Shown here in pieces: positions 41,562-59,159 of a DNA stretch of 64,000 bases. Each line of letters opens with the position of its first letter. The stretch's first letter is position 1. Under the pieces are notes generated by a model. It saw nothing but the letters and a program-made list of their open reading frames with translations. It had not been told where the DNA came from and did not search any database. The stretch is taken from assembly GCF_054482525.1 (NCBI RefSeq), contig NZ_CM137006.1, one strand, 5' to 3'. Made by a program: the position numbers and the translations under genes.

Positions 41562-43130
41562 TTAGCGTGCCGGCTGAGTAGTCGTGGAAGACTGCTCAAA
41601 GTGATAGCGACCGGTTTTCAGGCTGCTTGGGCCGAGGCGTGCAAACTTGAACATTAAGAACAATTCTGCCACCAGGAACAGGGTATACAGGCCGCAAATC
41701 AGCACCATTGAGAAGATGAGATCGCCTGCGGTCAGTGACGAGTTCGCCACAGCTGTCGGCAGCACTTCACCGATAGCCCACGGTTGGCGGCCATATTCAG
41801 CCACGAACCAGCCCGCTTCTACAGCAATCCACGGCAGCGGAATACCGTACAGCGCGGCGCGCAGCAGCCATTTTTTCTCGCCAATGCGGTTGCGGATGAC
41901 ACTCCAGAAAGAGAGCGCGATGATTGCCAGCAGCAGGAAGCCACACGCCACCATGATACGGAACGCGAAGTACAGCGGCGCTACACGCGGAATGGAGTCT
42001 TTGGTTGCCTGTTGAATCTGCGCTTCAGTCGCATCAGCCACGTTTGGCGTATAGCGTTTCAGCAGCAGACCGTAACCGAGGTCTTTCTTCATGCTATTGA
42101 ACTGGTCACGAACCGCCTGGTCGGTAGAACCAGAACGCAGTTGCTCGAGCAGAGAGTACGCCTTCATCCCGTTACGAATGCGTTCTTCATGCTGCACCAT
42201 CAGTTCTTTCAGGCCGATAACTGGAGTATCCACGGAACGCGTTGCAATGATGCCCAGCGCGTAAGGGATCTGGATCGCAAATTTGTTCGTCTCCTCTTCC
42301 TGATCAGGAATGCCGAACAGAGTAAAGGCAGCAGGCGCAGGTTGCGTTTCCCACTCGGCTTCAATAGCAGCCAGTTTGGTTTTCTGCACGTCGCCCATTT
42401 CGTAACCAGATTCATCACCCAGAACAATAACAGACAGAACGGCAGCCATACCGAAGCTGGCAGCGATAGCAAAGGAGCGTTTAGCGAAGGCGAAGTCACG
42501 ACCTTTCAGCATATACCATGCGCTGATACCGAGGATGAACATCGCGCCAGTCACATAACCAGACGCTACAGTGTGAACGAATTTCACCTGAGCAACCGGG
42601 TTAAGCACCAGCTCGGAGAAGCTCACCATCTCCATACGCATAGTTTCAAAGTTGAAATCGGACGCGATTGGGTTTTGCATCCAGCCGTTCGCAACCAGAA
42701 TCCACAGTGCGGACAGGTTTGAACCGAGCGCCACCAGCCAGGTGACACACATATGCTGAACTTTACCCAGACGATCCCAACCGAAGAAGAACAGACCTAC
42801 AAAGGTGGATTCGAGGAAGAAGGCCATCAGACCTTCGATTGCCAGCGGCGCACCGAAGATATCCCCTACATAGTGGGAATAGTAAGACCAGTTAGTCCCG
42901 AACTGGAACTCCATGGTCAGACCGGTTGCCACACCCAGAGCGAAGTTGATACCAAACAACTTGCCCCAGAACTTGGTCATATCTTTATAAATCTGTTTGC
43001 CGGAAAGGACGTAGACCGTTTCCATAATGGCCAGCAGGAACGCCATACCGAGCGTCAGTGGCACAAAAAGGAAGTGGTACATCGCGGTCAAGGCAAACTG
43101 TAAGCGCGACAGTTCGACTATATCTAACAT
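41562..43130 (-). CDS. cydA: Cytochrome bd-I ubiquinol oxidase subunit I
   Basis: 522 aa from [31 protein letters not shown] (second Met of supplied ORF). Confidence 0.95.
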
Positions 43131-43935
43131 CATGACTCCTTGCTCATCGCATGAAGACTCCGAGAGTGAACCCCGTTAGAAAGGGTCACACGCATGCCCC
43201 AATACAAAATTATTTGCTCGCCTCTATCGTTGCCATTTCATCAAAAGAGGAAAAGACAATGATAAAAAAGTTACAAATATGTTAATGAATAAACCAAATT
43301 GATCCCGTAATTATATTACGCCGCAAAATCCTTACAATAAACAGGTTTTTATTGAGCAAATTTGCATTTTTCGACAGTGATCAATTTATAGCGAAATTGT
43401 CACGATCTCACCAATTTGATCTACGACAATTTATCGTGTTTTGCAGATTTTTTTCAAGAATTAAAAATTGATTTATATCAAAATCAACCAAATATGTTAA
43501 TTATGTATAAACCATAGATTATTGGTAATTTTATTGTTAATTTATTGTGAAATATTTATACAACACAATTATTACAATGAAAAGGTATAGATAAAAAACC
43601 AGTGTTTTATTTAACAGAACCGCCCTATCCACTTTTTATAATACCAATTGATTAGAGTAGCCAATTTGTTGCTATTTTACATAACATATTTTTATCAAAG
43701 TTAATTGATTGTTGCCTTTATGAGCACCGACCGTAAGCCCGTTATGTTATTGTTTCATTAGTAATAATCACTTAAATGTATCGATGAAACAGGTATGACT
43801 TAGCGGGAGTGATTGTTTCTGAGTGAACAGAGACCACTTTCGCCTGATAAATGAAAAATGAGCGATTTTTGCAAGTTAGTTTTTCTATAGCCGAGTACGC
43901 TCAGCGCCTCGCTTGATTACAATGAGGTTGCTGCT
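43131..43935. promoter_or_regulatory. cydA upstream control region (long AT-rich leader/promoter region)
   Basis: ~800 bp AT-rich non-coding DNA upstream of cydA; contains a perfect FNR-type box; cydAB is known to be FNR/ArcA/H-NS controlled. Confidence 0.8.
43468..43481. promoter_or_regulatory. FNR binding site
   Basis: ttgatttatatcaa = perfect TTGAT-N4-ATCAA. Confidence 0.75.
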
Positions 43936-44880
43936 ATGAGTCCTGATAATATCAGTTCTGCTGTCAATCGCTTCTCAGGTTGGCCATCTAATAATCCTCT
44001 AAAAACAGATAACGAATCAATGACATCACCCATGACTGTGCAGGTAATAAAGATGATTGCCGCCATCCTTGACCCACATCGAATAGTCGTTGGAATCGAT
44101 ACACTTTATACAACGCAGCGCGAAACATTTACCTCAGAGAGTCAACAGCTCATTGAATCAGCATTGCAAACACTTCATGTGATGAATTTAAATAACCTGG
44201 AAACAAATCTCGATGAGGAAGGTCACTATCTGGCTTTTGGATATAACGTTGACACTCCTGACAGAATAACCGTTTCTGCTTATAATGAAAAAAAGCCTGG
44301 CTGCTATGGCCAATGTCTTTTAATACAGGATGACGAAACAGACTTATTTAACCTGATAAAAGTTAAAATTTATGAAGCCAGGCATAATTATGTCGCTCAA
44401 TTGATGAGCGATCCGGAATTTATGTTCAAATTTAGTTATAGCGCTCAACAAAATAGATTAGAACCTCATCTTCTGGTTCCCACTTATTTCCCTCTAAAAA
44501 CAAACGAACCGGTTACGCCAGAGGATGTACTGTTACTTTATCGTTTCTTTAAAATGGATGGTGATTTTAATATATTAACATCAGATGAATACATGAGTAT
44601 CATGACACCTCTGATGAAGTGTGAGCGCAGCATCCACGACCACAACAGGTATGTGACGGGCAAAGATACCCTTCTTCTGGACTATCCTCCTTCTGGTAAC
44701 CAGATATATTTCCATATTTTTCCTGACGAATCAGCAACACTAGTCCTTTATTTTTCAAACAATGACATTGAATGTTTCGTCTTTGAAAGAGATATTCCGA
44801 GCCAGTATCGCTTTTTCAAAATGTTTACCAATCTGGCACTGGTTATTGATCAGTTAACCGATGCCAATCAAATACTTTAA
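43936..44880 (+). CDS. Hypothetical protein, 314 aa, AT-rich gene, no family recognised
   Basis: Intact ORF with SD-like gagg upstream; codon usage and GC clearly lower than flanking genes; Ser/Pro/Asn/Thr-rich N-terminus without hydrophobic signal peptide. Confidence 0.7.
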   Translation: MSPDNISSAVNRFSGWPSNNPLKTDNESMTSPMTVQVIKMIAAILDPHRIVVGIDTLYTTQRETFTSESQQLIESALQTLHVMNLNNLETNLDEEGHYLAFGYNVDTPDRITVSAYNEKKPGCYGQCLLIQDDETDLFNLIKVKIYEARHNYVAQLMSDPEFMFKFSYSAQQNRLEPHLLVPTYFPLKTNEPVTPEDVLLLYRFFKMDGDFNILTSDEYMSIMTPLMKCERSIHDHNRYVTGKDTLLLDYPPSGNQIYFHIFPDESATLVLYFSNNDIECFVFERDIPSQYRFFKMFTNLALVIDQLTDANQIL

Positions 44881-44960
44881 TTTTTATATATCCCCTGTGG
44901 CAAATATTGCTAAACAATGCCCGGGGATTAATTTTTATTACTCACGGAAAGATTTAAATA

Positions 44961-45383
44961 ATGATCCCATCTCAAATCTCTTTCAACACCCTTCCTGTCA
45001 ATGCAACATACGCTTCAGAGACAACAGTTGACACACAAAAATTCTCTGACATCCTCTACTCAGCGGGGTGTTCCCTAAAGGATCTGGCTTATCTGAGCAG
45101 ATGTCTGGCATCAATACATCCGACTATCGCCAAAAACATTTATGAAACAGAAAATCTCAGCGATCAAAAATTACTGCATATTGATTTCCGTAGTACAAAT
45201 GAAATCAAGATAAATATCTTTTTTGGTCAACAACGAGAAGGATTAATTGAAATTAATTCTGACACTGTCATTTTTCCGATATTGTCTTCATTAATTGACT
45301 CCGCCATTTCTAAATTTCAACACCAAATCCCCGTTAACGGTTCAGTAAATCCTGACCTATTGTATGAGGATTATACTGATTAA
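44961..45383 (+). CDS. Hypothetical protein, 140 aa, apparently acidic, AT-rich gene
   Basis: ORF 80 bp downstream of the 314-aa gene, same strand, same low-GC composition. Confidence 0.6.
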   Translation: MIPSQISFNTLPVNATYASETTVDTQKFSDILYSAGCSLKDLAYLSRCLASIHPTIAKNIYETENLSDQKLLHIDFRSTNEIKINIFFGQQREGLIEINSDTVIFPILSSLIDSAISKFQHQIPVNGSVNPDLLYEDYTD

Positions 45384-45930
45384 ATCCCTCCTGTCGCGAA
45401 AAATGGCCTGCGTTATTGCCAGACGTAATAAAACTTTTGATTAACGTTACTCGTACTGGTAGCACCTTCATGTACTTTTCTTTTTTACGAAAAATCAAAA
45501 GAGCTAACAAAGGTCATAATTCGCATGAATCATTAATTATTTGTTATTTTCAACATTATTTTTACATTAAGCAGAGATGAATTGCAGTGAAATTCGACTT
45601 AACTTTTATGAAATGCATTTACTCATAGCTAAAGCCACGTCACAAAAATGCAAATTAGAAGTTGATCACAATTATCTCAATACATCAAATCAAGTTAATT
45701 TTAAAAATTTAACATTCATGACATTAGTTGACATAACACACTGAATTAAAATGAGAATTTGAAAACACACTTTAAACAATCATTTCCCGAAAGACATTTT
45801 GAAAATAGATCAATTGCAACATTACGGTCAGATAAAGACACTCCTGTGATATTAAACCTGTGCCGTTATGAGCGGCCATAAATACGACGTGTGTAACTTA
45901 TTTTACTCTCTGTCTTACAAAGGATTACCC

Positions 45931-46380
45931 ATGAAGAAAGCAACACTTGTGATTGGCGTTATTGGCGCGGACTGCCATGCAGTAGGCAATAAAGTTCTGG
46001 ACCGCGTTTTTAGCAACCATGACTTCAGAGTTATTAATCTGGGCGTAATGGTCAGCCAGGACGAATATATTGATGCTGCCATTGAAACTGGTGCTGACGC
46101 GATTGTCGTCTCCTCTATCTATGGGCATGGCGATATCGATTGTCTGGGCATGCGCGAACGCTGCATCGAGCGTGGGCTGGGTAACATCCTGCTCTATGTG
46201 GGCGGTAACCTGGTGGTCGGAAAACATGACTTCGCTGACGTGGAAACCAAGTTCAAAGAGATGGGATTTGATCGCGTCTTTTCCCCAAGTCATGACTTAG
46301 AAGATGTTTGTCAGCTGATGGCCCACGATATCAACCAACGTCATGACGTTGATACTCGCATTCTTGAAGAGGCAATCTGA
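45931..46380 (+). CDS. Glutamate mutase S (sigma) component, B12-binding subunit of methylaspartate mutase
   Basis: ORF 45868..46380; start [21 protein letters not shown] at 45931 with SD aagga; DxHxxG cobalamin-binding motif (DCHAVG); ~149 aa, similar to clostridial GlmS/MutS. Confidence 0.88.
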
Positions 46381-47768
46381 TGCAAATCGTCTCTGTCGAT
46401 ATTGGATCGACGTGGACCAAAGCAGCCCTCTTCACCCGGGAGGGGGACGCGTTAACGTTGGTTAACCACGTTCTGACCCCAACCACCACCCATCATCTGG
46501 CGAAGGGGTTTTTCTCCAGCCTGGACCAGGTGTTAAACGTAGATAATGCCCTCCCCCTGTTAAACAGTGGTGAGGTTGCATTGAAGTATTCCTCCTCTGC
46601 CAAAGGTGGGCTGGCGGTTGCCGCAATGGGATTGGTGCCTTCTATCACCCTGGAAACCGCGAAAGTAACCGCTCACTCTGCGGGTGCTAAAATTGCGCAA
46701 TATTACGCCTACAAGCTGAACCGCCGTGATATCCAGGCACTGGAAGAAACGCAGCCCGATATTCTCTTGTTCACCGGCGGCACCGATGGCGGAGAAGAAA
46801 GCTACGGACTGAATAACGCCCGTGTGTTGGCAGAATCCAAACTCGACTGCGCCATTATTTATGCCGGAAACCGGGATATTCAGGACGAGGTGCAGGAGAT
46901 CCTCGGGCATAAAGACCTGACCATCGTCGACAACGTTCTGCCCGATCTTGACCATCCGAACCCTTTAGCTGCACGCCAGGCTATCTGCGACATATTCCTT
47001 AAACGCATCGTTAAAGGGAAAGGGTTGGATGTCATTGTTGATAAAACAGGCGAAGAACCAATGCCGACACCATGGACGGTCTTTGAACTGGTTAAGGCAA
47101 TCAGTAACGTCGATCACAGCTGGAAAGAGTTCATGCTGATCGACATGGGTGGCGCAACCACCGATGTCTATTCCGCCTGTGCCAACACGCTCTCGCCCGA
47201 CACCGTTTTACACGGCGTACCGGAACCCTTCGTGAAACGGACGGTGGAAGGCGATCTGGGAATGCGCGTCTCGGCAATGGTGGTTGGTGAAAGTGCGAAA
47301 GAGTTAGTCAATGTGAATTTTGCTCAGCAACCCGCACAGCTGGACGCTTTTTATCATTACCTCCGCCATCTAGTCGCTCATCCCGACTACTTACCCGCGA
47401 ATGCAGAAGAAAAATATTTCGATACCGTCCTGGCCGGACTGTGTGTGGGTTATGCCACCGAAAGACATGCGGGCACCAAAAAAGAGGTCTGCACCTGCGT
47501 CGGCAATGTCGATTTACAGATGGGACGTGACCTGACAACCGTGCGTAAAGTCGTTGGTTCCGGCGGATGGCTCTCGCGTGCCAGTCAGTTCGATATGCAT
47601 CACTGGTTGAAATACCGCGAGTTAAACGACGACGGTAAACGCATTCTCTTACCGACCGAATTTGAATATTACCGCGATTCCCGGGGGCTATTACCACTGC
47701 TGGCAAACGTCGCCAGAGTCGATCCACTGGCCGCCGCGCGCACCAGTATTCAATGCTTAACCCTATAA
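46380..47768 (+). CDS. Glutamate mutase L component (GlmL/MutL-like, ASKHA-fold putative reactivase/chaperone)
   Basis: 462 aa [18 protein letters not shown] (ASKHA phosphate-1-like motif); start overlaps S-subunit stop (ATGA); located between S and E genes as in Clostridium. Confidence 0.8.
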   Translation: MQIVSVDIGSTWTKAALFTREGDALTLVNHVLTPTTTHHLAKGFFSSLDQVLNVDNALPLLNSGEVALKYSSSAKGGLAVAAMGLVPSITLETAKVTAHSAGAKIAQYYAYKLNRRDIQALEETQPDILLFTGGTDGGEESYGLNNARVLAESKLDCAIIYAGNRDIQDEVQEILGHKDLTIVDNVLPDLDHPNPLAARQAICDIFLKRIVKGKGLDVIVDKTGEEPMPTPWTVFELVKAISNVDHSWKEFMLIDMGGATTDVYSACANTLSPDTVLHGVPEPFVKRTVEGDLGMRVSAMVVGESAKELVNVNFAQQPAQLDAFYHYLRHLVAHPDYLPANAEEKYFDTVLAGLCVGYATERHAGTKKEVCTCVGNVDLQMGRDLTTVRKVVGSGGWLSRASQFDMHHWLKYRELNDDGKRILLPTEFEYYRDSRGLLPLLANVARVDPLAAARTSIQCLTL

Positions 47769-47786
47769 CAATTAAGGCTGCAATCA

Positions 47787-49232
47787 ATGGAACTTCGAAA
47801 TAAGAAATTAACCCATGACGAATTCATGACCGAGCGGCAACAGGTACTGAAAACCTGGGAAACCGGCAAGGATGTTGAAAACTTTGAAGATGGCGTTAAA
47901 TACCAACAAACCATTCCGGAGCATAAACGCTTCTCTCTTGCCCTGCTGAAAGCAGACAAGGAAGGTAAAACTCTTAGCCAACCGCGCGCAGGCGTGGCGC
48001 TGATGGACGAACACATCGAACTACTGAAAACACTACAAGAAGAGTGCGATCTGCTGCCGAGCACCATCGATGCATATACCCGTCTGAATCGGTACGAAGA
48101 AGCGGCTGTAGGGATTAAAAAATCCATCGAAGCCGGAACCTCTAAACTGAACGGTTTACCGGTCGTTAACCATGGCGTCGCAGCTTGCCGTCGCCTCACC
48201 GAAACTCTGCAAAAACCGCTACAGATCCGCCACGGCACGCCAGATGCGCGTCTGCTGGCTGAAATCTCGATGGCCAGCGGCTTTACCAGTTATGAAGGCG
48301 GCGGCATTTCCTACAATATTCCGTATGCCAAGCGCGTAACGCTGGAAAAATCGATCCGCGACTGGCAGTACTGCGACCGTTTAATGGGGATGTATGAAGA
48401 ACACGGGATCCGCATCAACCGCGAACCGTTTGGCCCACTAACGGGTACGCTGATCCCGCCGTTTATCTCGCACTCTATCGCGATAATCGAAGGATTACTG
48501 GCGCTGGAACAGGGTGTGAAATCTATCACCGTTGGTTATGGACAGGTCGGCAGCCTTACGCAGGATGTCGCGGCGATCCAGTCTCTGCGTGAACTTGCAC
48601 ACGAATACTTTCAGAGCTATGGCTATACCGACTATGAATTAAGTACCGTATTTCACCAGTGGATGGGCGGCTTTCCGGAAGACGAATCGAAAGCGTTCGC
48701 CATTATCTCCTGGGGTGCAGCCGTCGCGGGGATGTCTGGTGCCACCAAAGTCATCACCAAAAGTCCGCACGAAGCCTGGGGCATCCCGACTGCCACTGCC
48801 AACATTCAGGGGCTGAAAGCCTCCCGCCAGATGCTCAACATGGTCAATGAGCAGAAATTCCCGCCGTGCCCTGCGGTTGAACTGGAAATTGAACTGATTA
48901 AGAGCGAGGTTCGCGCGGTACTCAATAAAGTGTTCGAATTGGGTAATGGTGATATTGCGCGCGGTACGGTGCTGGCATTTGAAGCGGGCGTACTGGATGT
49001 GCCGTTTGCACCAGCCGCGTGTAACGCGGGCAAAATTCTTCCTGTCCGTGATAACACCGGCGCGATACGCGTACTGGAAGCCGGAGCCGTTCCATTGCCA
49101 AAAGATATTCTCGACCTCCACCACGATTACGTTGCTGAACGCGCACGCTTTGAAGGACGCCAACCGACATTCCAGATGGTTGTAGATGACATCAATGCTG
49201 TATCCCACAGTAAATTAATAGGAAGACCATAA
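47787..49232 (+). CDS. Glutamate mutase E (epsilon) catalytic subunit, methylaspartate mutase
   Basis: 481 aa MELRNKKLTHDEFMTERQQVLKTWETGKDVE...; strong resemblance to remembered Clostridium cochlearium GlmE (MELKNKKWTDEEF...QPRAGVALLDEHI...HGTPDSRLLAEI...GGGISYNIPYAK). Confidence 0.9.
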   Translation: MELRNKKLTHDEFMTERQQVLKTWETGKDVENFEDGVKYQQTIPEHKRFSLALLKADKEGKTLSQPRAGVALMDEHIELLKTLQEECDLLPSTIDAYTRLNRYEEAAVGIKKSIEAGTSKLNGLPVVNHGVAACRRLTETLQKPLQIRHGTPDARLLAEISMASGFTSYEGGGISYNIPYAKRVTLEKSIRDWQYCDRLMGMYEEHGIRINREPFGPLTGTLIPPFISHSIAIIEGLLALEQGVKSITVGYGQVGSLTQDVAAIQSLRELAHEYFQSYGYTDYELSTVFHQWMGGFPEDESKAFAIISWGAAVAGMSGATKVITKSPHEAWGIPTATANIQGLKASRQMLNMVNEQKFPPCPAVELEIELIKSEVRAVLNKVFELGNGDIARGTVLAFEAGVLDVPFAPAACNAGKILPVRDNTGAIRVLEAGAVPLPKDILDLHHDYVAERARFEGRQPTFQMVVDDINAVSHSKLIGRP

Positions 49233-50473
49233 TGAAAATAAAACAGGCCCTGTTCACCGCTGGCTATTCCTCATTCTATTTCGATGACCAGCAGGCGATA
49301 AAAAACGGAGCGGGTCACGACGGCTTTTTTTATACCGGGGAGCCAGTAACACAGGGGTTTAACGCCGTACGTCAGGCCGGGGAGTGCGTATCGGTACAGT
49401 TGATTCTGGAAAACGGCGCGGTCGCCGTAGGTGACTGTGCTGCCGTACAGTATTCCGGGGCAGGTGGTCGCGATCCACTGTTCCTCGCGGAGCACTTTAT
49501 TCCGTTCCTCAACGACCATATCAAGCCATTACTGGTAGGCCGCGATGTGGATGCTTTCCTGCCGAATGCCCGTTTCTTCGACAAATTGCGTATTGACGGC
49601 AACTTGCTGCATACCGCCGTGCGCTACGGATTATCACAGGCGCTGCTTGATGCTACCGCGCTGGCAACCGGCCGTCTGAAAACTGAAGTGGTCTGTGATG
49701 AATGGCAGTTGCCACGCGTGGCGGAATCCATTCCATTATTTGGTCAGAGCGGCGACGATCGATATATCGCCGTCGATAAGATGATCCTTAAGGGCATCGA
49801 CGTGCTGCCCCATGCGCTGATTAATAACGTCGAAGAGAAACTGGGCTTTAAAGGTGAAAAACTGCGCGAATATGTCCGCTGGCTGTCGGATCGTATTCTG
49901 AGCAAGCGCACCAGCGCACGCTACCACCCTACCCTGCACATCGATGTATACGGCACTATCGGTCTGATCTTCGATATGGATCCGCTTCGCTGTGCGCAAT
50001 ACATCGCCAGCCTGGAAAAAGAAGCGCAAGGCCTGCCGCTCTACATTGAAGGGCCGGTCGATGCCGGTAACAAGCCCGATCAAATTCGCCTGCTGACCGC
50101 GATTACCAAAGAGCTGACGCGCCTCGGTTCCGGCGTGAAAATTGTGGCCGATGAATGGTGTAACACCTACCAGGATATTGTTGATTTCACCGATGCCGCC
50201 AGTTGCCACATGGTGCAAATCAAAACCCCGGATCTGGGCAGTATTCACAACATCGTCGATGCAGTTCTTTATTGCAACAGCCACAGCATGGAAGCGTACC
50301 AGGGCGGCACCTGCAATGAAACTGATGTCAGTGCCCGCACCTGTGTCCACGTCGCCCTTGCCGCTCGCCCCATACGTATGCTGGTAAAGCCAGGGATGGG
50401 CTTTGACGAAGGCCTCGATATCGTCTTCAACGAAATGAATCGTACTATCGCGCTGTTGCAGGCTAAGGATTAA
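49232..50473 (+). CDS. 3-methylaspartate ammonia-lyase (beta-methylaspartase)
   Basis: 413 aa MKIKQALFTAGYSSFYFDDQQAIKNGAGHDGFFYTGEP...CAAVQYSGAGGRDPLF...; enolase-superfamily MAL, close to remembered clostridial MAL; start overlaps glmE stop. Confidence 0.92.
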   Translation: MKIKQALFTAGYSSFYFDDQQAIKNGAGHDGFFYTGEPVTQGFNAVRQAGECVSVQLILENGAVAVGDCAAVQYSGAGGRDPLFLAEHFIPFLNDHIKPLLVGRDVDAFLPNARFFDKLRIDGNLLHTAVRYGLSQALLDATALATGRLKTEVVCDEWQLPRVAESIPLFGQSGDDRYIAVDKMILKGIDVLPHALINNVEEKLGFKGEKLREYVRWLSDRILSKRTSARYHPTLHIDVYGTIGLIFDMDPLRCAQYIASLEKEAQGLPLYIEGPVDAGNKPDQIRLLTAITKELTRLGSGVKIVADEWCNTYQDIVDFTDAASCHMVQIKTPDLGSIHNIVDAVLYCNSHSMEAYQGGTCNETDVSARTCVHVALAARPIRMLVKPGMGFDEGLDIVFNEMNRTIALLQAKD

Positions 50474-50476
50474 CAA

Positions 50477-51847
50477 ATGGCTCGTTCTTTTAAAGTCTTA
50501 TCGCCAACGGCAATCCTCGGGTATGGATTCCCGGAGGAGAGCTTCCGCAAAGCGATGGCAGAATCGCCCGATCTGATCGCCGTTGATGCTGGCTCTTCCG
50601 ATCCGGGTCCCCACTACCTCGGGGCGGGCAAACCGTTTACCGATCGCGCAGGGGTCAAGCGCGATCTACGCTATATGATCACCGCAGGCGTGCAAAATAA
50701 TATACCGGTGGTGATCGGAACGGCCGGCGGTTCTGGTGCCGCTCCACACCTGGAGTGGTGCCGAGAAATAATTCATGAGATTGCCCGGGAAGAGCACCTC
50801 TCGTTCTCGATGGCGCTGATCCCGGCAGACGTTGACAAAGCCATCGTCCACCAGGCGCTGGATAACGGCAAAATCACGGCGCTGGATTTTGTCCCGCCGT
50901 TAACCCACGACGCGATTGACGAAAGTACGTATATCGTCGCGCAAATGGGCATCGAACCCTTCCAGCAGGCGCTGAAAGAAGGCGCGCAAGTGGTGCTGGG
51001 CGGGCGCGCTTACGACCCGGCCTGCTTTGCTGCGCTACCGATCATGCAAGGCTTTGATGAAGGTCTGGCGCTGCATTGTGGGAAAATCCTTGAATGCGCG
51101 GCAATCGCCGCAACGCCCGGCTCAGGCTCTGACTGTGCGATGGGCATCATTGATGACAACGGCTTTACGCTGAAGACATTTAATCCGAAGCGTAAATTTA
51201 CCGAAACGTCAGCGGCTGCACACACACTGTATGAGAAATCCGATCCCTACTTCCTGCCAGGACCTGGCGGCGTGTTGAACCTGAAAGGCTGCACATTTAA
51301 AGCGGTCAATGACGGCGAAGTGTACGTCAGCGGTTCTAAGCATGAAGAAACGCCGTATGCCCTGAAACTGGAAGGTGCGCGACGGGTGGGCTTCCGCTGT
51401 CTGACCATCGCAGGAACGCGCGACCCGATCATGATCGCCGGGATCGATAAAATCATCGATGAAGTCAAAACCAGCGTTTCGCGTAACCTGTCGCTCGACG
51501 ATGACAGCATACGCATCAATTTCCACCTGTACGGCAAAAACGGGGTGATGGGCGACCATGAACCGATGCAAACTGCCGGGCATGAGCTGGGGATTGTCCT
51601 TGATGTAGTTGCACCGACCCAGGAAATTGCCAACAGCGTTTGCTCGCTGGTGCGCTCTACTATGCTGCACTACGGCTATGAAAACCGCATCGCTACCGCA
51701 GGCAACCTGGCGTTCCCATTCTCCCCTTCAGATATCCAGGGCGGGCCGGTATACGAATTTTCCATATATCACCTGATTGAAGCCAACGACGCTCTGCGTT
51801 TTGATTTCCATATTGAACAGGTGACGCCAGAAGGAGTTCAGGCATGA
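50477..51847 (+). CDS. Conserved protein of unknown function (possibly DUF1446 / AtuA-like family; assignment from memory, unverified)
   Basis: 456 aa ORF starting 4 nt after MAL stop; no recognisable catalytic motif. Confidence 0.75.
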   Translation: MARSFKVLSPTAILGYGFPEESFRKAMAESPDLIAVDAGSSDPGPHYLGAGKPFTDRAGVKRDLRYMITAGVQNNIPVVIGTAGGSGAAPHLEWCREIIHEIAREEHLSFSMALIPADVDKAIVHQALDNGKITALDFVPPLTHDAIDESTYIVAQMGIEPFQQALKEGAQVVLGGRAYDPACFAALPIMQGFDEGLALHCGKILECAAIAATPGSGSDCAMGIIDDNGFTLKTFNPKRKFTETSAAAHTLYEKSDPYFLPGPGGVLNLKGCTFKAVNDGEVYVSGSKHEETPYALKLEGARRVGFRCLTIAGTRDPIMIAGIDKIIDEVKTSVSRNLSLDDDSIRINFHLYGKNGVMGDHEPMQTAGHELGIVLDVVAPTQEIANSVCSLVRSTMLHYGYENRIATAGNLAFPFSPSDIQGGPVYEFSIYHLIEANDALRFDFHIEQVTPEGVQA

Positions 51848-52161
51848 AACAGTCAATTGTCTCACTGGCGCAAGTCATTCGTTCGAAAAATGCCGGACCT
51901 TACGAACTGGTTTTAGATATTTTATTTAAAACCAAAGAAAACTATGAGCGAGTTAAATCATCAGGGCAATTAACCCCAGAACTGATCGCGCGCTTATATC
52001 ATGTTGAACCTGACTTTATTCATCGTATTGTCTGGTTTGATCCTTCTAACGCAGTAAAAATCGTCATGCCACGAGATATTATCTCCGGGAATGTAGGTGA
52101 CAATGATGTCTATGGTGCACAGCAACATGCACCTTTATTAAATATGAGTTTCGATTTGTAA
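51844..52161 (+). CDS. Small conserved protein of unknown function (possibly DUF4387), partner of preceding gene
   Basis: 105 aa ORF whose ATG overlaps the stop of the preceding gene (ATGA), implying translational coupling. Confidence 0.7.
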   Translation: MKQSIVSLAQVIRSKNAGPYELVLDILFKTKENYERVKSSGQLTPELIARLYHVEPDFIHRIVWFDPSNAVKIVMPRDIISGNVGDNDVYGAQQHAPLLNMSFDL

Positions 52162-52321
52162 AAATCCGAACACTTTTAGCCAACTGACATCCCGTCACTT
52201 ATTGCAGTTCAACACTTCAGCTATTTGTAAGGTTGTAATAGCAGGTAGATGCCTGAATCTTTATTCGGGCATCTACTTCTCCTGATTCTGATTTATCGCC
52301 GTGCACCTGATGGAGGAAAAA

Positions 52322-53602
52322 ATGAAGAAAATAAGTTTAACCACGATGATTCTTTTGGCGCTGGTACTTGGAATGATTATCGGCGTAGTGCTCAATAACA
52401 CTGCTTCACCGGAAACAGCAAAACTCTATGCGCAAGAAATATCGATATTCACGACGATTTTCTTACGACTGATAAAAATGATTATCGCTCCGTTAGTGGT
52501 CTCTACCCTGGTGGTAGGTATAGCTAAAATGGGCGATGCCAAAGCCCTTGGTCGTATTTTTTCTAAAACACTCTTTTTATTTATTTGCGCCTCATTGCTG
52601 TCAATTGCCTTAGGCTTGATAACAGTAAATTTCTTCATGCCAGGCACAGGAATTAATTTTGTTGCACACGGTGCCGAAACCACCGGAGTGGTCGCGTCAG
52701 AACCCTTTACGCTAAAAGTATTTATTTCGCATGCTTTCCCCACCAGCATTGTCGATGCCATGGCGCACAATGAAATTTTGCAAATCGTGGTGTTCTCAAT
52801 TTTCCTCGGCTGTAGCCTGACGGCGATTGGTGAGAAAGGCAGCGCCATCGTTCACGCCTTAGATTCGCTGGCACATGCCATGTTAAAGCTCACTGGCTAC
52901 GTCATGCTCTTCGCTCCCCTGACCGTATTCGCTGCTATTTCAGCATTGATTGCTGAACGAGGACTGGCAGTTATGGTGAGCGCCGGGATCTTTATGGGTG
53001 AATTTTATTTCACCATGTTGTTACTTTGGGTGCTGCTTATCGGTCTGGCCATCGTTTATGTCGGCCCCTGCATCAGACGCCTGACCCGCGCCCTTTCGGA
53101 ACCCGCCCTGCTGGCATTTACCACATCCAGTTCTGAAGCGGCTTTTCCGGGAACGCTTGAAAAACTGGAGCAATTTGGCGTTTCCCCCAAAATTGCCAGC
53201 TTTGTCTTACCCATTGGCTACTCATTTAATCTCGTTGGATCAATGGCCTACTGCTCCTTCGCCACAGTTTTCATCGCCCAGGCCTGCAATATCCATTTAT
53301 CCATCGGTGAGCAAATCACCATGCTGTTGATCCTGATGTTGACCTCGAAAGGAATGGCTGGCGTACCACGCGCCTCAATGGTGGTTATCGCCGCCACGCT
53401 CAACCAGTTCAATATTCCGGAAGCGGGGCTGATCTTGCTGATGGGCGTTGATCCGTTCCTTGATATGGGGCGTTCAGCGACAAACGTCATGAGCAACGCA
53501 ATGGGCGCTGCGATGGTGAGTCGGTGGGAAGGCGAACATTTCGGCGAGGGCTGTCGGGGTAAAGCATTAAAACCCAATGAATCGAACGTTGCTCTGCCCT
53601 GA
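52322..53602 (+). CDS. Dicarboxylate/amino acid:cation symporter (GltP/DctA family)
   Basis: ORF 52301..53602; start MKKISLTTMILLALVLGMIIGVV at 52322 after SD ggagg; multi-pass hydrophobic protein resembling glutamate/aspartate or C4-dicarboxylate symporters. Confidence 0.85.
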   Translation: MKKISLTTMILLALVLGMIIGVVLNNTASPETAKLYAQEISIFTTIFLRLIKMIIAPLVVSTLVVGIAKMGDAKALGRIFSKTLFLFICASLLSIALGLITVNFFMPGTGINFVAHGAETTGVVASEPFTLKVFISHAFPTSIVDAMAHNEILQIVVFSIFLGCSLTAIGEKGSAIVHALDSLAHAMLKLTGYVMLFAPLTVFAAISALIAERGLAVMVSAGIFMGEFYFTMLLLWVLLIGLAIVYVGPCIRRLTRALSEPALLAFTTSSSEAAFPGTLEKLEQFGVSPKIASFVLPIGYSFNLVGSMAYCSFATVFIAQACNIHLSIGEQITMLLILMLTSKGMAGVPRASMVVIAATLNQFNIPEAGLILLMGVDPFLDMGRSATNVMSNAMGAAMVSRWEGEHFGEGCRGKALKPNESNVALP

Positions 53603-53709
53603 GGGGGATCTTAAGCAATCAGAAGCCAATGACTACGCATTTTTATAAGCCGGATCATGAAGTTAGACGGCAATTAAGTAACACTAACGTTTAAGGTGAA
53701 AAGTGAAAT

Positions 53710-55362
53710 ATGTCCAAACCATTTATCTGGCAAGAACCGTTTCTACAAAATAAAGACGGTACAGAATATACATTAATTAGCGATCAACATATTACAGTAA
53801 CGGAATTAGACGGCGAAGAAGTGATAAAAATCGCTCCTGAAGCATTAACGCTGCTTGCCCGGCAGGCATTTTATGAAGCCTCTTTTTTCTTACGTTCCGC
53901 TCATTTGCAACAGGTCGCCAGCATTTTTAACGATCCGCAGGCCAGCAGTAATGATAAATACGTTGCGTTGCAGTTATTACGTAATGCTGAAGTCTCAGCA
54001 AAAGGGGTATTACCCAACTGTCAGGATACCGGCACCGCAACTATTGTTGCCAGTAAAGGGCAACAGATATGGACCGGAGGTAACGACGCTGAAGCCTTAA
54101 GCAAAGGCATTTACACCACTTTCCAGGAAAATAATCTGCGCTTTTCACAAAATGCGCCGCTGGATATGTACACCGAAGTCAATACGCAAACCAATCTCCC
54201 GGCGCAGATTGATATCAGCGCTGTCGCTGGTGATGAGTACCATTTTCTCTGTGTTAATAAAGGGGGCGGCTCTGCCAATAAAGCCGCGCTTTATCAGGAA
54301 ACCAAATCCTTATTGCAACCAGAAAAACTGACCGCATTTTTAATCGAAAAAATGAAATCGCTGGGCACCGCTGCCTGCCCGCCTTACCACATCGCCTTTG
54401 TCGTCGGAGGGCTTTCAGCCGATCAAACCTTAAAAGTTGCCAAGCTGGCCTCTACGAAATATTACGACAATTTGCCCACCAGCGGAAACGAGCAGGGACA
54501 AGCATTCCGTGATATTGAGCTGGAAAAAGTGTTGCTCGAGGCCAGTCAGCAATTTGGTATTGGTGCGCAATTTGGGGGTAAATATTTCGCTCATGATATT
54601 CGCGTCATTCGTCTGCCGCGTCACGGTGGCTCTTGCCCGATAGCTATGGCGCTCTCCTGTTCTGCGGATCGCAATATCAAAGCAAAAATTAACAAGCACG
54701 GTATCTGGCTGGAAAAACTCGAACACAATCCTGGGCAATATATTCCAGCCTCACTACGGGAAGAAAATCACGCGCAACATGTACAACTGGATCTAAACCG
54801 TCCGTTGCGTGAAGTGATGCAGGATCTCGCCAGATTACCGGTAGGTACCCGCGTGTCGTTAAGTGGTCCCATCGTAGTGGCGCGCGATATCGCCCACGCC
54901 AAAATAAAAGTGCGGCTGGATAGCGGCGAACCGATGCCGGATTACCTGAAGCATCATATTGTCTATTACGCTGGCCCGGCGAAAACACCGGAGAACATGG
55001 CCTGCGGTTCACTGGGTCCAACCACGGGCGGTCGAATGGACGGTTATGTCGATACCTTCCAGGCTGCTGGCGGCAGTCTGGTAATGTTATCGAAAGGTAA
55101 CCGCAGCCAGCAGGTCACCGATGCCTGTCACAAACATGGCGGCTTCAATCTGGGAAGTATTGGCGGTGCAGCTGCGTTACTGGCGCAAGAATATGTCAAA
55201 AGTCTGCGTTGCCTGGAATACCCGGAGCTGGGTATGGAAGCGGTGTGGATGATGGAAGTGGAAAATTTACCCGCATTCATCCTGGTAGATGATAAAGGCA
55301 ATAATTTCTTTAGTCAGTTTGAGCAGCAACACCGCTGTGCCAGTTGCCCTGCGGGACATTAA
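53710..55362 (+). CDS. fumD: Class I (Fe-S) fumarate hydratase-like enzyme; likely mesaconase/fumarase FumD type
   Basis: 550 aa, collinear similarity to E. coli FumA/FumB ([74 protein letters not shown]); clustered with glutamate mutase and MAL. Confidence 0.85.
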
Positions 55363-55371
55363 GGAAAATGA

Positions 55372-55974
55372 ATGGAAGCGCGAATTTCAACTGAACGGCA
55401 TGTGCAGCACCAGCAAAAATTGAAGGAACAGGTCGATACGCGCGTCGCGGCGGCGATAGAGAAAAAAGGGATCTTGATTGTTTTCACCGGCAACGGCAAA
55501 GGGAAATCCACTGCCGCGTTTGGTACTGTGACGCGCGCGGTGGGTCATGGCAAAACGGTGGGGGTTGCGCAGTACATCAAGGGGCAATGGGACAACGGCG
55601 AATACAACCTTCTCCAGCCGCTGGGGGTTGAGTTTCATATTATGGGAACCGGTTTTACCTGGGAGACACAGAACCGGCAAGCGGATATCGACGCGGCGAA
55701 AGAGGTCTGGTCGGAAAGCAAACGGATGCTGGCTGACAAGCGTTACGACTTAGTGGTGCTTGATGAGCTGACCTATATGCTGGCTTACCATTATCTGGAC
55801 ACCGAAGAAGTGATCGCTTCTCTGCAAAACCGCCCGGCACAACAAAGTGTCATTGTCACCGGACGCGGTTGCCACAGTCAGATATTAAAAATGGCGGATA
55901 CGGTCAGCGAAATCCGCCCCGTCAAACATGCTTTTGATAACGGCATTCAGGCGCAGCCGGGTATCGACTGGTAA
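55372..55974 (+). CDS. Cob(I)alamin adenosyltransferase (CobA/BtuR family), cluster-associated
   Basis: 200 aa; P-loop VFTGNGKGKSTAAFG and ...WETQNRQADIDAA...DLVVLDELTYM...TGRGCH...VSEIRPVKHAF matching remembered E. coli BtuR. Confidence 0.88.
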   Translation: MEARISTERHVQHQQKLKEQVDTRVAAAIEKKGILIVFTGNGKGKSTAAFGTVTRAVGHGKTVGVAQYIKGQWDNGEYNLLQPLGVEFHIMGTGFTWETQNRQADIDAAKEVWSESKRMLADKRYDLVVLDELTYMLAYHYLDTEEVIASLQNRPAQQSVIVTGRGCHSQILKMADTVSEIRPVKHAFDNGIQAQPGIDW

Positions 55975-56685
55975 TAAATATCCTCCGGCATAGCCGGAGG
56001 TTTTTCAAATGCGCCTATAAGGCTCTCTTACCAGCCGCGCCCTAACAGGCGCACACGATCTGACATTTGCATCCAACTTCGTTACTTACGGCCCGTAAAC
56101 GGGCTGCCCGGATAGGGAATCGATAACTGCTCTCCCATTTTATCCTCTTCAAGCTGGTGCTTTATGTAATCCTGTATCTTCGCCGTGTTCTTACCCACCG
56201 TATCGACGTAGTACCCTCTGCACCAGAACTCCCTGTTCCTGTATTTGAATTTCAAATCACCAAACTGCTCGTAAAGCATCAGACTGCTTTTCCCTTTCAG
56301 ATATCCCATAAAGCCGGATACGCTCATTTTGGGCGGGATCTCCACAAGCATATGGATATGATCTGCACAGCATTCAGCTTCCAGAATCCGTACACTTTTC
56401 CACTCACACAGCTTTCTCAAAATACTGCCTATTGCTCTACGCTTCTCTCTGTAGAACACCTGTCTTCGGTATTTTGGCGCAAAAACTATGTGATATTTAC
56501 AGTTCCATCGGGTGTGCGCTAAGCTCTTTTCGTTCCCCATTGGGACCCCCTTTTGATTTCTTGTTTGACACTTGCAGTTGCCAGACCGCAAGGTGTTTTA
56601 ACAAATCAAAAGGGGTTTTAATAACTGGCTTAAAGCTGAAAGCTTTCCGGAACCCCCAGCCTAGCTGGGGGTTTTCTGTGCACAA
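55973..56685 (-). mobile_element. IS200-family insertion sequence, copy 2, 713 bp
   Basis: Identical by eye to 19138..19850 including transposase gene and both subterminal hairpins; begins within/at the TAA stop of the adenosyltransferase gene. Confidence 0.9.
56082..56540 (-). CDS. tnpA: IS200-type Y1 (HUH) transposase TnpA
   Basis: Protein identical to that of copy 1 (supplied ORFs 19247..19756 and 56082..56591 are identical). Confidence 0.9.
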   Translation of the reverse strand: MGNEKSLAHTRWNCKYHIVFAPKYRRQVFYREKRRAIGSILRKLCEWKSVRILEAECCADHIHMLVEIPPKMSVSGFMGYLKGKSSLMLYEQFGDLKFKYRNREFWCRGYYVDTVGKNTAKIQDYIKHQLEEDKMGEQLSIPYPGSPFTGRK

Positions 56686-56718
56686 TAACTGCGCCTGGCA
56701 TCCCGCCAGGCGCAGGTT

Positions 56719-57624
56719 TTACATCTCCTGCGGTACAACCGATTTCGCCAGCAACCATTCACGAAATTGCTGCAAGTGCGGTGAGTCAGACTTCTCTTCC
56801 TGCCACGTCATAATAAAACGATTACCGGTACGAATAGGCACATCACAGGGAATCACCATATCGCCACTATCCAAATCATGTTGAATAGCGAACCGTGGTA
56901 ACAGCGCCACGCCGAGATTAGAGCGCACGGCGGCAATCAGCATTGAAAGCAAATCGAAACGTGGTCCGTTGTTGACCAGCGGACTGCTAACGCCAGATAA
57001 GGCAAACCACTCTTCCCAGCCAGTAATACGGGTACTTTGATGCAGAAGTGGTAACTCTGTAAGCAGTTCTGCCACTGACAGTTTTTGATCGGACATTGCA
57101 AGCAAACTGCCGCTGCATACCGGCAAAATCTCCTCTTCAAAGAGATATTCTACTTCCGCCCAGGGCGCGCAAAAATTTTCGCGCATAATGACAGCATCGT
57201 ACTCCCGATTAAGAAAATCGCCGTTATTAGCTAAAGAGTGAATATTAACAATAATATCGGGATGTAACTTTGTGAATTCATGTAAATTTGGGATTAACCA
57301 GTGGGTACTAAACGTAGGATTCACGGCAAGTTCAATAACCTTAACTGTAGGTTGCCAGGTCATAATGGTATTGGTATCGCGTTCCAGCTTATTTAATGTT
57401 TCTTTTACTATCCCCAGGTAATACTTCCCTGCATCATTAAGAAAAATACGTTTTTTAGAGTGTGAAAATAACGGAGTATGTAAAAATTCCTCCAGCGCAC
57501 TCACTTGTCTGAATACTGCACTTTGGGTTAACGCTAACTCCTCTGCCGCTCTGGTATAACTTTCATGACGTGCGACGACCTCAAAAGTCACCAGCAGTTC
57601 CGTTTTAGGTATTTTTCCTCGCAT
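56719..57624 (-). CDS. LysR-type transcriptional regulator
   Basis: 301 aa; N-terminal HTH ...FEVVARHESYTRAAEELALTQSAVFRQVSALEEFL, C-terminal periplasmic-binding-protein-like effector domain. Confidence 0.85.
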   Translation of the reverse strand: MRGKIPKTELLVTFEVVARHESYTRAAEELALTQSAVFRQVSALEEFLHTPLFSHSKKRIFLNDAGKYYLGIVKETLNKLERDTNTIMTWQPTVKVIELAVNPTFSTHWLIPNLHEFTKLHPDIIVNIHSLANNGDFLNREYDAVIMRENFCAPWAEVEYLFEEEILPVCSGSLLAMSDQKLSVAELLTELPLLHQSTRITGWEEWFALSGVSSPLVNNGPRFDLLSMLIAAVRSNLGVALLPRFAIQHDLDSGDMVIPCDVPIRTGNRFIMTWQEEKSDSPHLQQFREWLLAKSVVPQEM

Positions 57625-58190
57625 AATGCCGTCCCTTAAAAATAGTTTAAACCATCAAAAATACATTACTTATTACGAAGTAATGGTAACCAAAGCAGCA
57701 ATAAATAATTTATAAGAATCATGATTGACATTTATAACCCAGTAAGCCTGGCGTGACAAATATCTTAATCAGATAATAATAATCCGAAAAGCACAGCGCC
57801 TTTCGAATTATCCGGAATCACATTAAGTGAAAATTATTAAATTGATATCATTTATCATATCTGTGGATATTATGATAAACAATCAACAAAGATTTTATTT
57901 TTGATTTATAGCATATCCCTCTAAGAATTTTTGCGATGCTGCAATATCCGGGGTAAAGACCCGATCCTGGCTGACAAATGGCACGACTTGACGATAAGCG
58001 GTGAACATCGCTTTTGTTGATTTACTTAACGCTACGGTCAAACGCTGGGAAGCCAGTGCATCAGGTAACGATTCGAAATTCGCCGTCGTTCTTATTCGTG
58101 GCTTGCGGTCGGTTGCGGCAATCCACAGTGGCTGTGGTCATGCAGTCAAGCCAGCGGTCAGATTTCGACCGTGGTTAACATTTAAGGCAT

Positions 58191-58214
58191 AAAAAAGGCC
58201 ATCATACGATGGCC
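58191..58214 (-). terminator. Rho-independent terminator of sucABCD
   Basis: On minus strand ggccatcgtatgatggcc hairpin followed by tttttt. Confidence 0.8.
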
Positions 58215-58289
58215 AACCATGTCGAAACCGACAGCCCTTCGCCATTCCTGTAGAGGGAAGCGGCGAGGGCTATTTCTTATTACAGATAT
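58191..58289 (-). ncRNA. sdhX: Putative 3-prime-UTR-derived sRNA SdhX (RybD) of the sdh-suc operon
   Basis: ~100 nt between sucD stop and the terminator hairpin; in E. coli this 3-prime UTR gives rise to SdhX; boundaries approximate. Confidence 0.5.
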
Positions 58290-59159
58290 TTATTTCAGAA
58301 CAGTTTTCAGTGCTTCACCGATATCCGCCAGGCTGCGAACGGTTTTCACGCCTGCGGCTTCCAGAGCAGCGAATTTCTCATCCGCAGTCCCTTTCCCACC
58401 GGCAATGATGGCACCCGCGTGGCCCATACGTTTGCCTTTCGGCGCAGTCACACCAGCGATGTAACCCACAACAGGCTTGGTAACGTGCTCTTTGATGTAC
58501 GCAGCCGCTTCTTCTTCAGCGCTACCGCCGATCTCACCGATCATCACGATCGCTTCGGTCTGCGGATCTTTTTCGAACATTTCGAGGATGTCGATAAAGT
58601 TAGAGCCAGGGATCGGGTCGCCGCCGATACCAACACAGGTCGACTGACCGAAACCGTAATCCGTGGTCTGTTTAACCGCTTCATAGGTCAGTGTACCGGA
58701 ACGGGAAACGATACCCACTTTACCCGGTTTGTGAATGTGACCAGGCTGGATACCGATTTTGCATTCACCCGGAGTGATAACGCCTGGGCAGTTCGGGCCG
58801 ATCATGCGAACGCCCGCTTCATCCAGTTTCACCTTCACGGTCAGCATATCCAGCGTCGGGATGCCTTCAGTGATGGTGATAATCAGTTTGATGCCTGCAT
58901 CAATAGCTTCCAGAATGGAGTCTTTGCAGAACGGTGCTGGTACGTAGATAACAGAAGCGGTAGCGCCAGTAGCAGCAACAGCTTCACGCACGGTGTTGAA
59001 CACCGGCAGGCCGAGGTGGGTGGTGCCGCCTTTACCTGGGGTTACGCCGCCAACCATTTTAGTGCCGTATGCAATGGCCTGTTCTGAGTGGAAAGTCCCC
59101 TGGCTACCGGTAAAGCCCTGGCAGATAACCTTGGTGTTTTTATCAATTAAAATGGACAT
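58290..59159 (-). CDS. sucD: Succinyl-CoA synthetase alpha subunit
   Basis: 289 aa [45 protein letters not shown]. Confidence 0.96.

Follow-up and report, generated by a model that had tools for sequence, protein, structure and literature searches.

Does the segment between cydA and sucD in this E. coli chromosome encode a complete route of glutamate breakdown, or does it end in mesaconate and citramalate, and did it take the place of the mngRAB genes that K-12 carries there? The window, meaning the whole 64,000-nucleotide stretch of DNA analysed, was 100% identical to E. coli PCN033 (NZ_CP006632.1) over positions 43000-58500, and the RefSeq annotation was consistent with the program-made ORF list for this region. 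We put at roughly 80% the probability that the segment is an enterobacterial methylaspartate-pathway cluster encoding the entire route. From cydA to sucD the gene order was glmS-glmL-glmE-mal, an AtuA-family gene, a DUF4387 gene, a DAACS symporter gene, fumD, cobO and a LysR gene, with the following features.

45797..45816, plus strand: conserved 20-mer TTTTGAAAATAGATCAATTG, candidate operator, 115-134 nt upstream of glmS
45931..46380, plus strand: glmS, B12-binding small subunit of glutamate (methylaspartate) mutase (NF002612)
46380..47768, plus strand: glmL (mutL), glutamate mutase accessory/reactivating protein (NF040745)
47787..49232, plus strand: glmE, catalytic large subunit of glutamate mutase (TIGR01503)
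49232..50473, plus strand: mal, 3-methylaspartate ammonia-lyase (TIGR01502)
50477..51847, plus strand: cmlA, predicted large subunit of a CoA/ACP-independent citramalate lyase (AtuA family, PF07287)
51844..52161, plus strand: cmlB, predicted small subunit of citramalate lyase (DUF4387, PF14330)
52322..53602, plus strand: DAACS-family dicarboxylate/amino-acid:cation symporter, GltP/DctA-like (DctA and GltP models)
53710..55362, plus strand: fumD, class I fumarase with predicted mesaconase activity (NF011921)
55372..55974, plus strand: cobO, ATP:cob(I)alamin adenosyltransferase, maker of the AdoCbl cofactor (TIGR00708)
56719..57624, minus strand: LysR-type regulator, GcvA-like but under the cut-off, conserved with the cluster

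The island genes were present and intact as the first-pass annotation had described them, with the enzyme genes above their NCBIfam cut-offs, and its gene identities, the methylaspartate route and the site between cydA and sucD were borne out. GlmS scored 251 bits against NF002612 (cut-off 110) and matched PDB 1I9C_A (E = 2.8e-49), its residues 14-19 (DCHAVG) forming the base-off/His-on cobalamin motif DxHxxG in alignment with the motif of 1I9C_A. GlmE scored 865 bits against TIGR01503 (cut-off 390) and matched PDB 6H9E_B over its full length (E = 2e-190), while GlmL scored 511 bits against NF040745 (cut-off 475). Judged by these matches, GlmS and GlmE would form an adenosylcobalamin-dependent mutase interconverting glutamate and 3-methylaspartate. 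Methylaspartase scored 543 bits against TIGR01502 (cut-off 286) and matched the Citrobacter structure 1KKO (E = 1.3e-269), and the enolase-superfamily catalytic residues and Mg2+ ligands H194, D238, E273, D307, Q329 and K331 were all present. Activity in vivo has been shown for the methylaspartase of O157:H7 (bioRxiv 10.1101/2025.11.12.688011). The adenosyltransferase CobA/CobO scored 247 bits against TIGR00708 (cut-off 168).

FumD was assigned to the third enterobacterial class I fumarase type by NF011921 (1282 bits, cut-off 1060) and fell under the cut-offs for FumA (927 versus 1105) and FumB (NF011920, 924 versus 1094). It shared 542 of 550 residues (98.5%) with WP_000042485.1 of O157:H7 strain F7349, the strain assayed having been ATCC 700728, in which FumD was characterised as a mesaconase (Kronen & Berg 2015, PMC4682846). 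We infer from this likeness that PCN033 FumD acts as a mesaconase. The O157:H7 cluster with mesaconase FumD had been named in the first-pass annotation, which rightly took the segment as probably not new; in PCN033 the gene content, gene order and chromosomal site of the cluster are those of O157:H7 (PMC4682846), and the proteins were 98.5-100% identical to those of the O157 type apart from two orphans at 92-96%. An additional IS200C, lying between the cobO and LysR genes, sets PCN033 apart from the O157 type. The cluster is already known and none of the results are new to specialists.

The last step is the one on which the earlier accounts stopped. The 2015 paper on the O157:H7 cluster assigned no role to DUF1446 and did not settle what becomes of citramalate (PMC4682846), and the first-pass annotation listed two coupled unknown proteins, with no citramalate lyase visible and the pathway end unsettled. 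That reading is out of date, as CmlA shared about 92% identity with chain A, and CmlB about 85% with chain B, of PDB 9ERQ/9EVF (CmlB versus 9ERQ_B, E = 5.2e-57). The AtuA-family protein (456 aa) and the DUF4387 protein (105 aa) equal the CmlAB of these entries in length, and as there the genes overlap, with a 4-nt overlap between the start of cmlB and the stop of cmlA. The entries are titled 'citramalate lyase - AMPPNP - citramalate' (9ERQ) and 'citramalate lyase - ADP - pyruvate' (9EVF), pairing an ATP analogue with citramalate and ADP with pyruvate. In vivo, the Raoultella planticola cmlAB splits citramalate into pyruvate and acetate, with growth that was mesaconate- and plasmid-dependent and with labelled acetyl-CoA (2026 preprint, bioRxiv 10.64898/2026.01.16.699985). 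The name citramalate lyase is based on the labels of the PDB depositors and on this one preprint on the R. planticola enzyme; by likeness to both, E. coli CmlAB would split (S)-citramalate into pyruvate and acetate and so encode the step that had been missing.

Genomic context pointed the same way. The order glmS-glmL-glmE-mal-AtuA-DUF4387 was kept in all six loci compared (Yersinia, Pseudescherichia, another enterobacterial-like genome, a Riflebacteria MAG and two metagenome contigs) with the AtuA/DUF4387 pair directly 3' of mal, and CitDEF was found near none of the six. Homologues of CitD, CitE and CitF were likewise not found in or beside the PCN033 cluster. AtuA of the Pseudomonas acyclic terpene utilisation cluster, after which Pfam PF07287 is named, shares this family with CmlA in a different genomic context, and to our knowledge it has no established function.

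With CmlAB as the probable last step, every enzyme needed to turn glutamate into pyruvate, acetate and ammonia would be encoded here. In the proposed route the DAACS symporter would import the substrate, presumably L-glutamate, which the adenosylcobalamin-dependent GlmS/GlmE would rearrange to (2S,3S)-3-methylaspartate, GlmL serving as the accessory or repair protein for the mutase. E. coli depends on external corrinoid, which CobO would adenosylate after import. Methylaspartase would then remove ammonia to give mesaconate, FumD, an oxygen-labile class I fumarase, would hydrate mesaconate to (S)-citramalate, and CmlAB would finally yield pyruvate and acetate.

The same intermediates (glutamate, methylaspartate, mesaconate and citramalate, then pyruvate and acetate) occur in the clostridial pathway of C. 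tetanomorphum and C. tetani, to whose GlmS, GlmL, GlmE and methylaspartase the E. coli proteins are orthologous by their PDB matches. The later steps differ, as in Clostridia the mesaconase is the two-subunit MesAB and the citramalate lyase is of the CitDEF type, with CitCXG activation genes, whereas E. coli has the single-chain FumD and the unrelated CmlAB (PMC4682846), and the butyrate branch of the clostridial fermentation is missing in E. coli.

We infer that in the cell the pathway runs in the direction of anaerobic glutamate catabolism. Against this stands the finding that an O157:H7 strain showed no methylaspartase activity, and no growth on or stimulation by glutamate, in any of the conditions tried (PMC4682846). 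The symporter scored 314 bits with the DctA model and 304 bits with the GltP model, reaching neither cut-off, and being equally near to both it would also suit a cluster devoted mainly to the uptake and catabolism of C5-dicarboxylates or 3-methylaspartate (mesaconate, citramalate or methylaspartate), with the mutase running toward glutamate for assimilation. The mutase reaction is reversible with glutamate slightly favoured, and in engineered E. coli the enzyme running in that direction supports growth (bioRxiv 10.1101/2025.11.12.688011); FumD is a promiscuous mesaconase/fumarase, and the O157:H7 strain did not grow on glutamate (PMC4682846). However, gene order and content are those of glutamate fermenters, where the flux runs from glutamate (PMC4682846), and a lyase ending in pyruvate and acetate fits catabolism from both entry points, which makes assimilation an improbable main purpose and a variant of glutamate catabolism rather than its exclusive rival. 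That either mesaconate or (S)-citramalate is the end product, released from the cell in an effector or virulence-related role while the AtuA/DUF4387 pair does something else, is scarcely credible given that the cell extracts in PMC4682846 came from cells without cluster expression and that the pair lies directly 3' of mal in every locus compared, is deposited under the name citramalate lyase in complexes with citramalate and with pyruvate and, in the form of the R. planticola genes, functions in vivo.

Stop and start codons from glmS to cmlB overlap or nearly abut, which suggests that these genes form one operon. The 20-mer TTTTGAAAATAGATCAATTG upstream of glmS has the form of an interrupted dyad, TTGA-N7-TCAA, consistent with a T-N11-A box; it was the sole conserved block upstream of glmS in an alignment of four genera and occurred once per enterobacterial cluster locus. 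Three other genera had LysR orthologues (81%, 72% and 61% identical) beside the cluster, differently arranged, whereas non-enterobacterial clusters have a GntR regulator. The dyad is the probable site of action of the LysR regulator conserved with the cluster. An ATCAA half-site is present in the dyad, and an FNR site was rejected on its spacing of 5 rather than 4. A sigma-70 scan gave fewer matches than shuffled sequence, and no convincing promoter was seen upstream of glmS. An Rfam search of 43000-58500 (E <= 1) gave no cobalamin riboswitch, the STnc490 RNA of IS200 being the only match.

For CmlA, both the whole protein and its N-domain had 9ERQ/9EVF as their only PDB structural matches, and weak neighbours of the N-domain included several carboxylate-phosphorylating amino-acid-kinase folds. 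A tentative proposal, and as a whole a doubtful one, is that the two deposited complexes show a substrate and a product state, and that CmlAB is nucleotide-dependent and phosphorylates the C4-carboxylate to release acetyl phosphate, with the dyad as the LysR-controlled switch of the operon. If this were true, CmlAB would use acyl-phosphate chemistry in place of CoA or ACP, the glutamate route of the island would yield acetyl phosphate and feed AckA/Pta directly, and the LysR-controlled dyad would explain why the operon is not yet known to be expressed.

The matches of K-12 strains C600 and W3110 were confined to the flanks, in agreement with the absence from K-12 claimed earlier, and the segment specific to PCN033 relative to K-12 was 43507-58186, so that the first-pass extent of 43910-57624 was slightly too narrow. 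Among 5426 complete E. coli genomes, 1116 (21%) carried the segment, a carrier being a genome that held at least 80% of it; the route is therefore 'unusual for E. coli' in a relative sense only. Island, rtcB and mngRAB stood in tandem in 118 genomes. The two modules are thus adjoining and not alternatives, and because of these tandem genomes PCN033 and O157 are read as having lost mngRAB without any swap; the earlier statement that the island lies where K-12 carries mngRAB is an oversimplification. In Pseudescherichia vulneris the cluster was found at the same cydA-sucD site, and the locus is an old mosaic common to Pseudescherichia rather than a recent replacement of mngRAB. The marks of a classical integrative genomic island were missing, there being no tRNA target, no flanking direct repeats and no integrase among the ORFs. 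The cluster constitutes a strain-variable metabolic capacity, O157:H7 being among the roughly one fifth of E. coli that have it, and carriers such as the porcine extraintestinal pathogen PCN033 would convert gut glutamate to pyruvate, acetate and ammonia, given B12.

The edges of the segment and the cobO/LysR interval contained the following features; the first-pass annotation had listed neither the IS200C, the two low-GC orphan ORFs and the rtcB remnant nor the 118 tandem genomes.

43507..43935, no strand: left junction, AT-rich, GC 0.36 (blastn)
43936..44880, plus strand: orphan ORF, 314 aa, low GC, no family match
44961..45383, plus strand: orphan ORF, 140 aa, low GC, no family match, dN/dS 0.20
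55978..56683, minus strand: IS200C insertion between the convergent cobO and LysR genes (NF033573, 148 bits)
56082-56540, within IS200C: IS200C tnpA
56550-56673: STnc490 5' leader RNA of IS200C (RF01405, 146 bits)
56689..56715, no strand: bidirectional terminator-like hairpin common to cobO and the LysR gene
57904..58186, plus strand: degenerate rtcB-family 3' remnant, right junction (tblastn and blastn versus rtcB)

AT-rich flanks, the IS200C insertion, the rtcB remnant, the loss of the neighbouring mngRAB, the lack of expression under laboratory conditions (PMC4682846) and the reduction of the island in EPEC E2348/69 to the orphan ORFs and glmS might together be taken for a silent, decaying remnant with no present function in E. 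coli. However, all 12 ORFs of the PCN033 segment were intact, the ten metabolic and regulatory genes had dN/dS of 0.02-0.13 versus the O157 type at dS of 0.03-0.11 between the lineages, IS200C disrupted no gene and a fifth of complete genomes (21%) retained the cluster, which leaves decay very unlikely; the cluster genes are under purifying selection.

The 314-aa orphan had a dN/dS of 0.52 versus the O157 type and was present in E. coli island carriers and missing from the P. vulneris cluster. It had no match in NCBIfam, Pfam, PADLOC, PHROGs or PDB, and for both orphans family searches and plasmid tblastn gave nothing outside E. coli itself. Correspondence of this orphan to the approximately 315-aa Walker-A protein 3' of DUF4387 in non-enterobacterial clusters was ruled out, as there was no homology.

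IS200C was located between the convergent 3' ends of cobO and the LysR gene, inserted directly 5' of the terminator-like hairpin (56689..56715). The site is empty in the O157 type and occupied in only 5 of the 5426 genomes. At the left edge, blastn homology stopped at 43506 for K-12 and at 43771 for phylogroup B2 strains, and K-12 homology started again at 58187, right of the rtcB remnant.

Between cydA and sucD, the stretch carries a cluster of genes for the methylaspartate pathway, and positions 43000-58500 were 100% identical to the E. coli PCN033 chromosome (NZ_CP006632.1). The ORF list and the RefSeq annotation of this segment were concordant and gave the features below.

Features of the cydA-sucD segment (window positions)
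41562-43130, minus strand, cydA, left flank gene
43936-44880, orphan ORF, 314 aa
44961-45383, orphan ORF, 140 aa
45931-46380, glmS
46380-47768, glmL
47787-49232, glmE
49232-50473, mal
50477-51847, AtuA-family gene (cmlA)
51844-52161, DUF4387 gene (cmlB)
52322-53602, DAACS symporter
53710-55362, class I fumarase (FumD)
55372-55974, cobO
55978-56683, IS200C
56719-57624, minus strand, LysR-type regulator
58290-59159, minus strand, sucD, right flank gene

The system is already known, as the first-pass annotation had correctly stated for O157:H7: Kronen & Berg (PLoS One 2015) described the cluster in Enterobacteriaceae and named its additional fumarase FumD (PMC4682846). ORFs, RefSeq annotation and NCBIfam assignments concurred on the island noted at this junction, and the earlier interpretation was right overall except for a lyase held to be missing and a simple swap with mngRAB. 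Core genes had a GC content of approximately 52% compared to 35-38% in the flanks (43000-45900 and 57000-58000). All twelve ORFs were intact, with 92-100% identity to their counterparts in the E. coli O157 version of the cluster. Against that version, dN/dS was 0.02-0.13 for all ten metabolic and regulatory genes, and this strong purifying selection argues that the pathway is in use, although no condition tried gave expression of cluster genes or glutamate use in O157:H7 (PMC4682846).

GlmS, GlmL, GlmE, methylaspartase, fumarase and CobO exceeded the curated NCBIfam equivalog cut-offs. GlmS has the cobalamin motif DxHxxG and could be aligned with Clostridium cochlearium GlmS, while GlmE matched the clostridial catalytic subunit over its full length (E = 2e-190). 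The methylaspartase was a near-identical match (E = 1e-269) to the Citrobacter amalonaticus enzyme whose crystal structure is 1KKO, and retained H194, D238, E273, D307, Q329 and K331. The fumarase scored 1282 bits against a cut-off of 1060 on the third-type model NF011921, the sole fumarase-type model passed, and fell below the cut-offs of the FumA and FumB models; the O157-type FumD (WP_000042485.1) is that found in O157:H7 strain F7349. The symporter passed neither the DctA nor the GltP cut-off in NCBIfam and was equally close to both.

Kronen & Berg did not find citramalate lyase activity and listed the DUF1446 gene 3' of mal as unknown (PMC4682846), and no such lyase had been visible in the first reading. 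That view is superseded by matches to PDB chains, a preprint and gene order. All 456 residues of the AtuA-family protein aligned with PDB chains 9ERQ_A and 9EVF_A (E = 4.6e-292, ~92% identity), and the DUF4387 protein matched chain B (E = 5.2e-57, ~85% identity); the depositors gave these chains the names citramalate lyase subunit A (cmlA) and subunit B (cmlB). Growth of an E. coli auxotroph carrying Raoultella planticola cmlAB depended on the plasmid and on mesaconate, and its acetyl-CoA was labelled (bioRxiv 10.64898/2026.01.16.699985). The order glmS-glmL-glmE-mal-AtuA-DUF4387 was kept in Yersinia, Pseudescherichia, an enterobacterial-like genome, a Riflebacteria MAG and two metagenome contigs, and no classical lyase genes (CitDEF) were nearby at any of these six loci, which gives independent genomic-context support for the pair as citramalate lyase. 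The entries, released in October 2025 as "citramalate lyase - AMPPNP - citramalate complex" (9ERQ) and "citramalate lyase - ADP - pyruvate complex" (9EVF), each contain a nucleotide, an ATP analogue alongside the substrate and ADP alongside the product. An acyl-phosphate mechanism that uses ATP is therefore conceivable; the CmlA N-domain has weak amino-acid-kinase neighbours, which are compatible with this mechanism and not evidence for it.

Directly after the DUF4387 gene, non-enterobacterial methylaspartate clusters conserve a protein of ~315 aa whose Walker A motif reads GAEGSGKST (L008 11712-12665; L009 11698-12654; L010 11677-12618). It had no Pfam or NCBIfam assignment apart from the P-loop and no counterpart in the E. 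coli island, and could serve the mutase or the lyase as an accessory NTPase.

The island most likely works by a five-step route. Glutamate would enter by the symporter and be converted to 3-methylaspartate by GlmSE with adenosylcobalamin, CobO turning imported corrinoid into the cofactor and GlmL maintaining mutase activity. Methylaspartase would then release ammonia and mesaconate, FumD would hydrate mesaconate to (S)-citramalate and CmlAB would yield pyruvate and acetate. From glmS to cmlB, each stop codon overlaps or nearly abuts the next start codon, which suggests a single operon. Upstream of glmS, the 20-mer TTTTGAAAATAGATCAATTG (45797-45816) contains the interrupted dyad TTGA-N7-TCAA, a candidate operator. 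This block occurred once per enterobacterial locus and was the only one conserved in the glmS upstream region of four genera (E. coli, Pseudescherichia, Yersinia and that of a further locus, L013), among which the surrounding intergenic DNA had diverged. The LysR gene was retained alongside the cluster in three other genera (61-81% identity) despite rearrangements.

With presence defined as 80% or more of the 15.5-kb query, the island was found in 1116 of 5426 complete E. coli genomes (21%), close to the 26.5% given in 2015 (PMC4682846). The segment was absent from K-12 strains, which matched the flanks only, homology stopping at 43506 and restarting at 58187 with mngB-mngA-mngR between. A simple exchange of the island for mngRAB as allelic alternatives was ruled out, since 118 genomes hold both side by side in the series cydA, orphans, glm cluster, LysR, rtcB, mngB-mngA-mngR and sucD, with rtcB intact (e.g. 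L005 17003-18400). Of the rtcB-family gene, just a degenerate 3' end (~57904-58186) survives in PCN033 and O157, which have therefore lost rtcB and mngRAB through deletion. In EPEC E2348/69 (L006 4937-9321), the orphans and glmS persist, ISEc13 and a truncated mngA come next, and the remaining glm-cluster genes are deleted; B2 strains had a TPR gene in place of the island. In Pseudescherichia vulneris (L012 5455-15670), a glm-mal-cml-symporter-fumD-LysR cluster without the orphans and cobO also lies between cydA and sucD, and site and cluster therefore appear older than E. coli. No tRNA, integrase or flanking repeat was found at the island. Together with the strain comparison and the P. vulneris site, this marks the locus as an old mosaic variable region and not a recently integrated island, and its patchy distribution may be explained by loss rather than gain.

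The low-GC orphan ORFs had no match in family, structure, phage or defence libraries. They were found in E. coli carriers including the EPEC remnant, and dN/dS of 0.52 (314 aa) and 0.20 (140 aa) indicated weaker constraint than on neighbouring genes. IS200C, with tnpA on the minus strand and the STnc490 leader RNA, is flanked by AATAA at both ends and was inserted directly 5' of the terminator hairpin common to the convergent cobO and LysR genes, interrupting no gene. Just five of the 5426 genomes had IS200C at this site, one of which, elppa5, retains rtcB and mngRAB.
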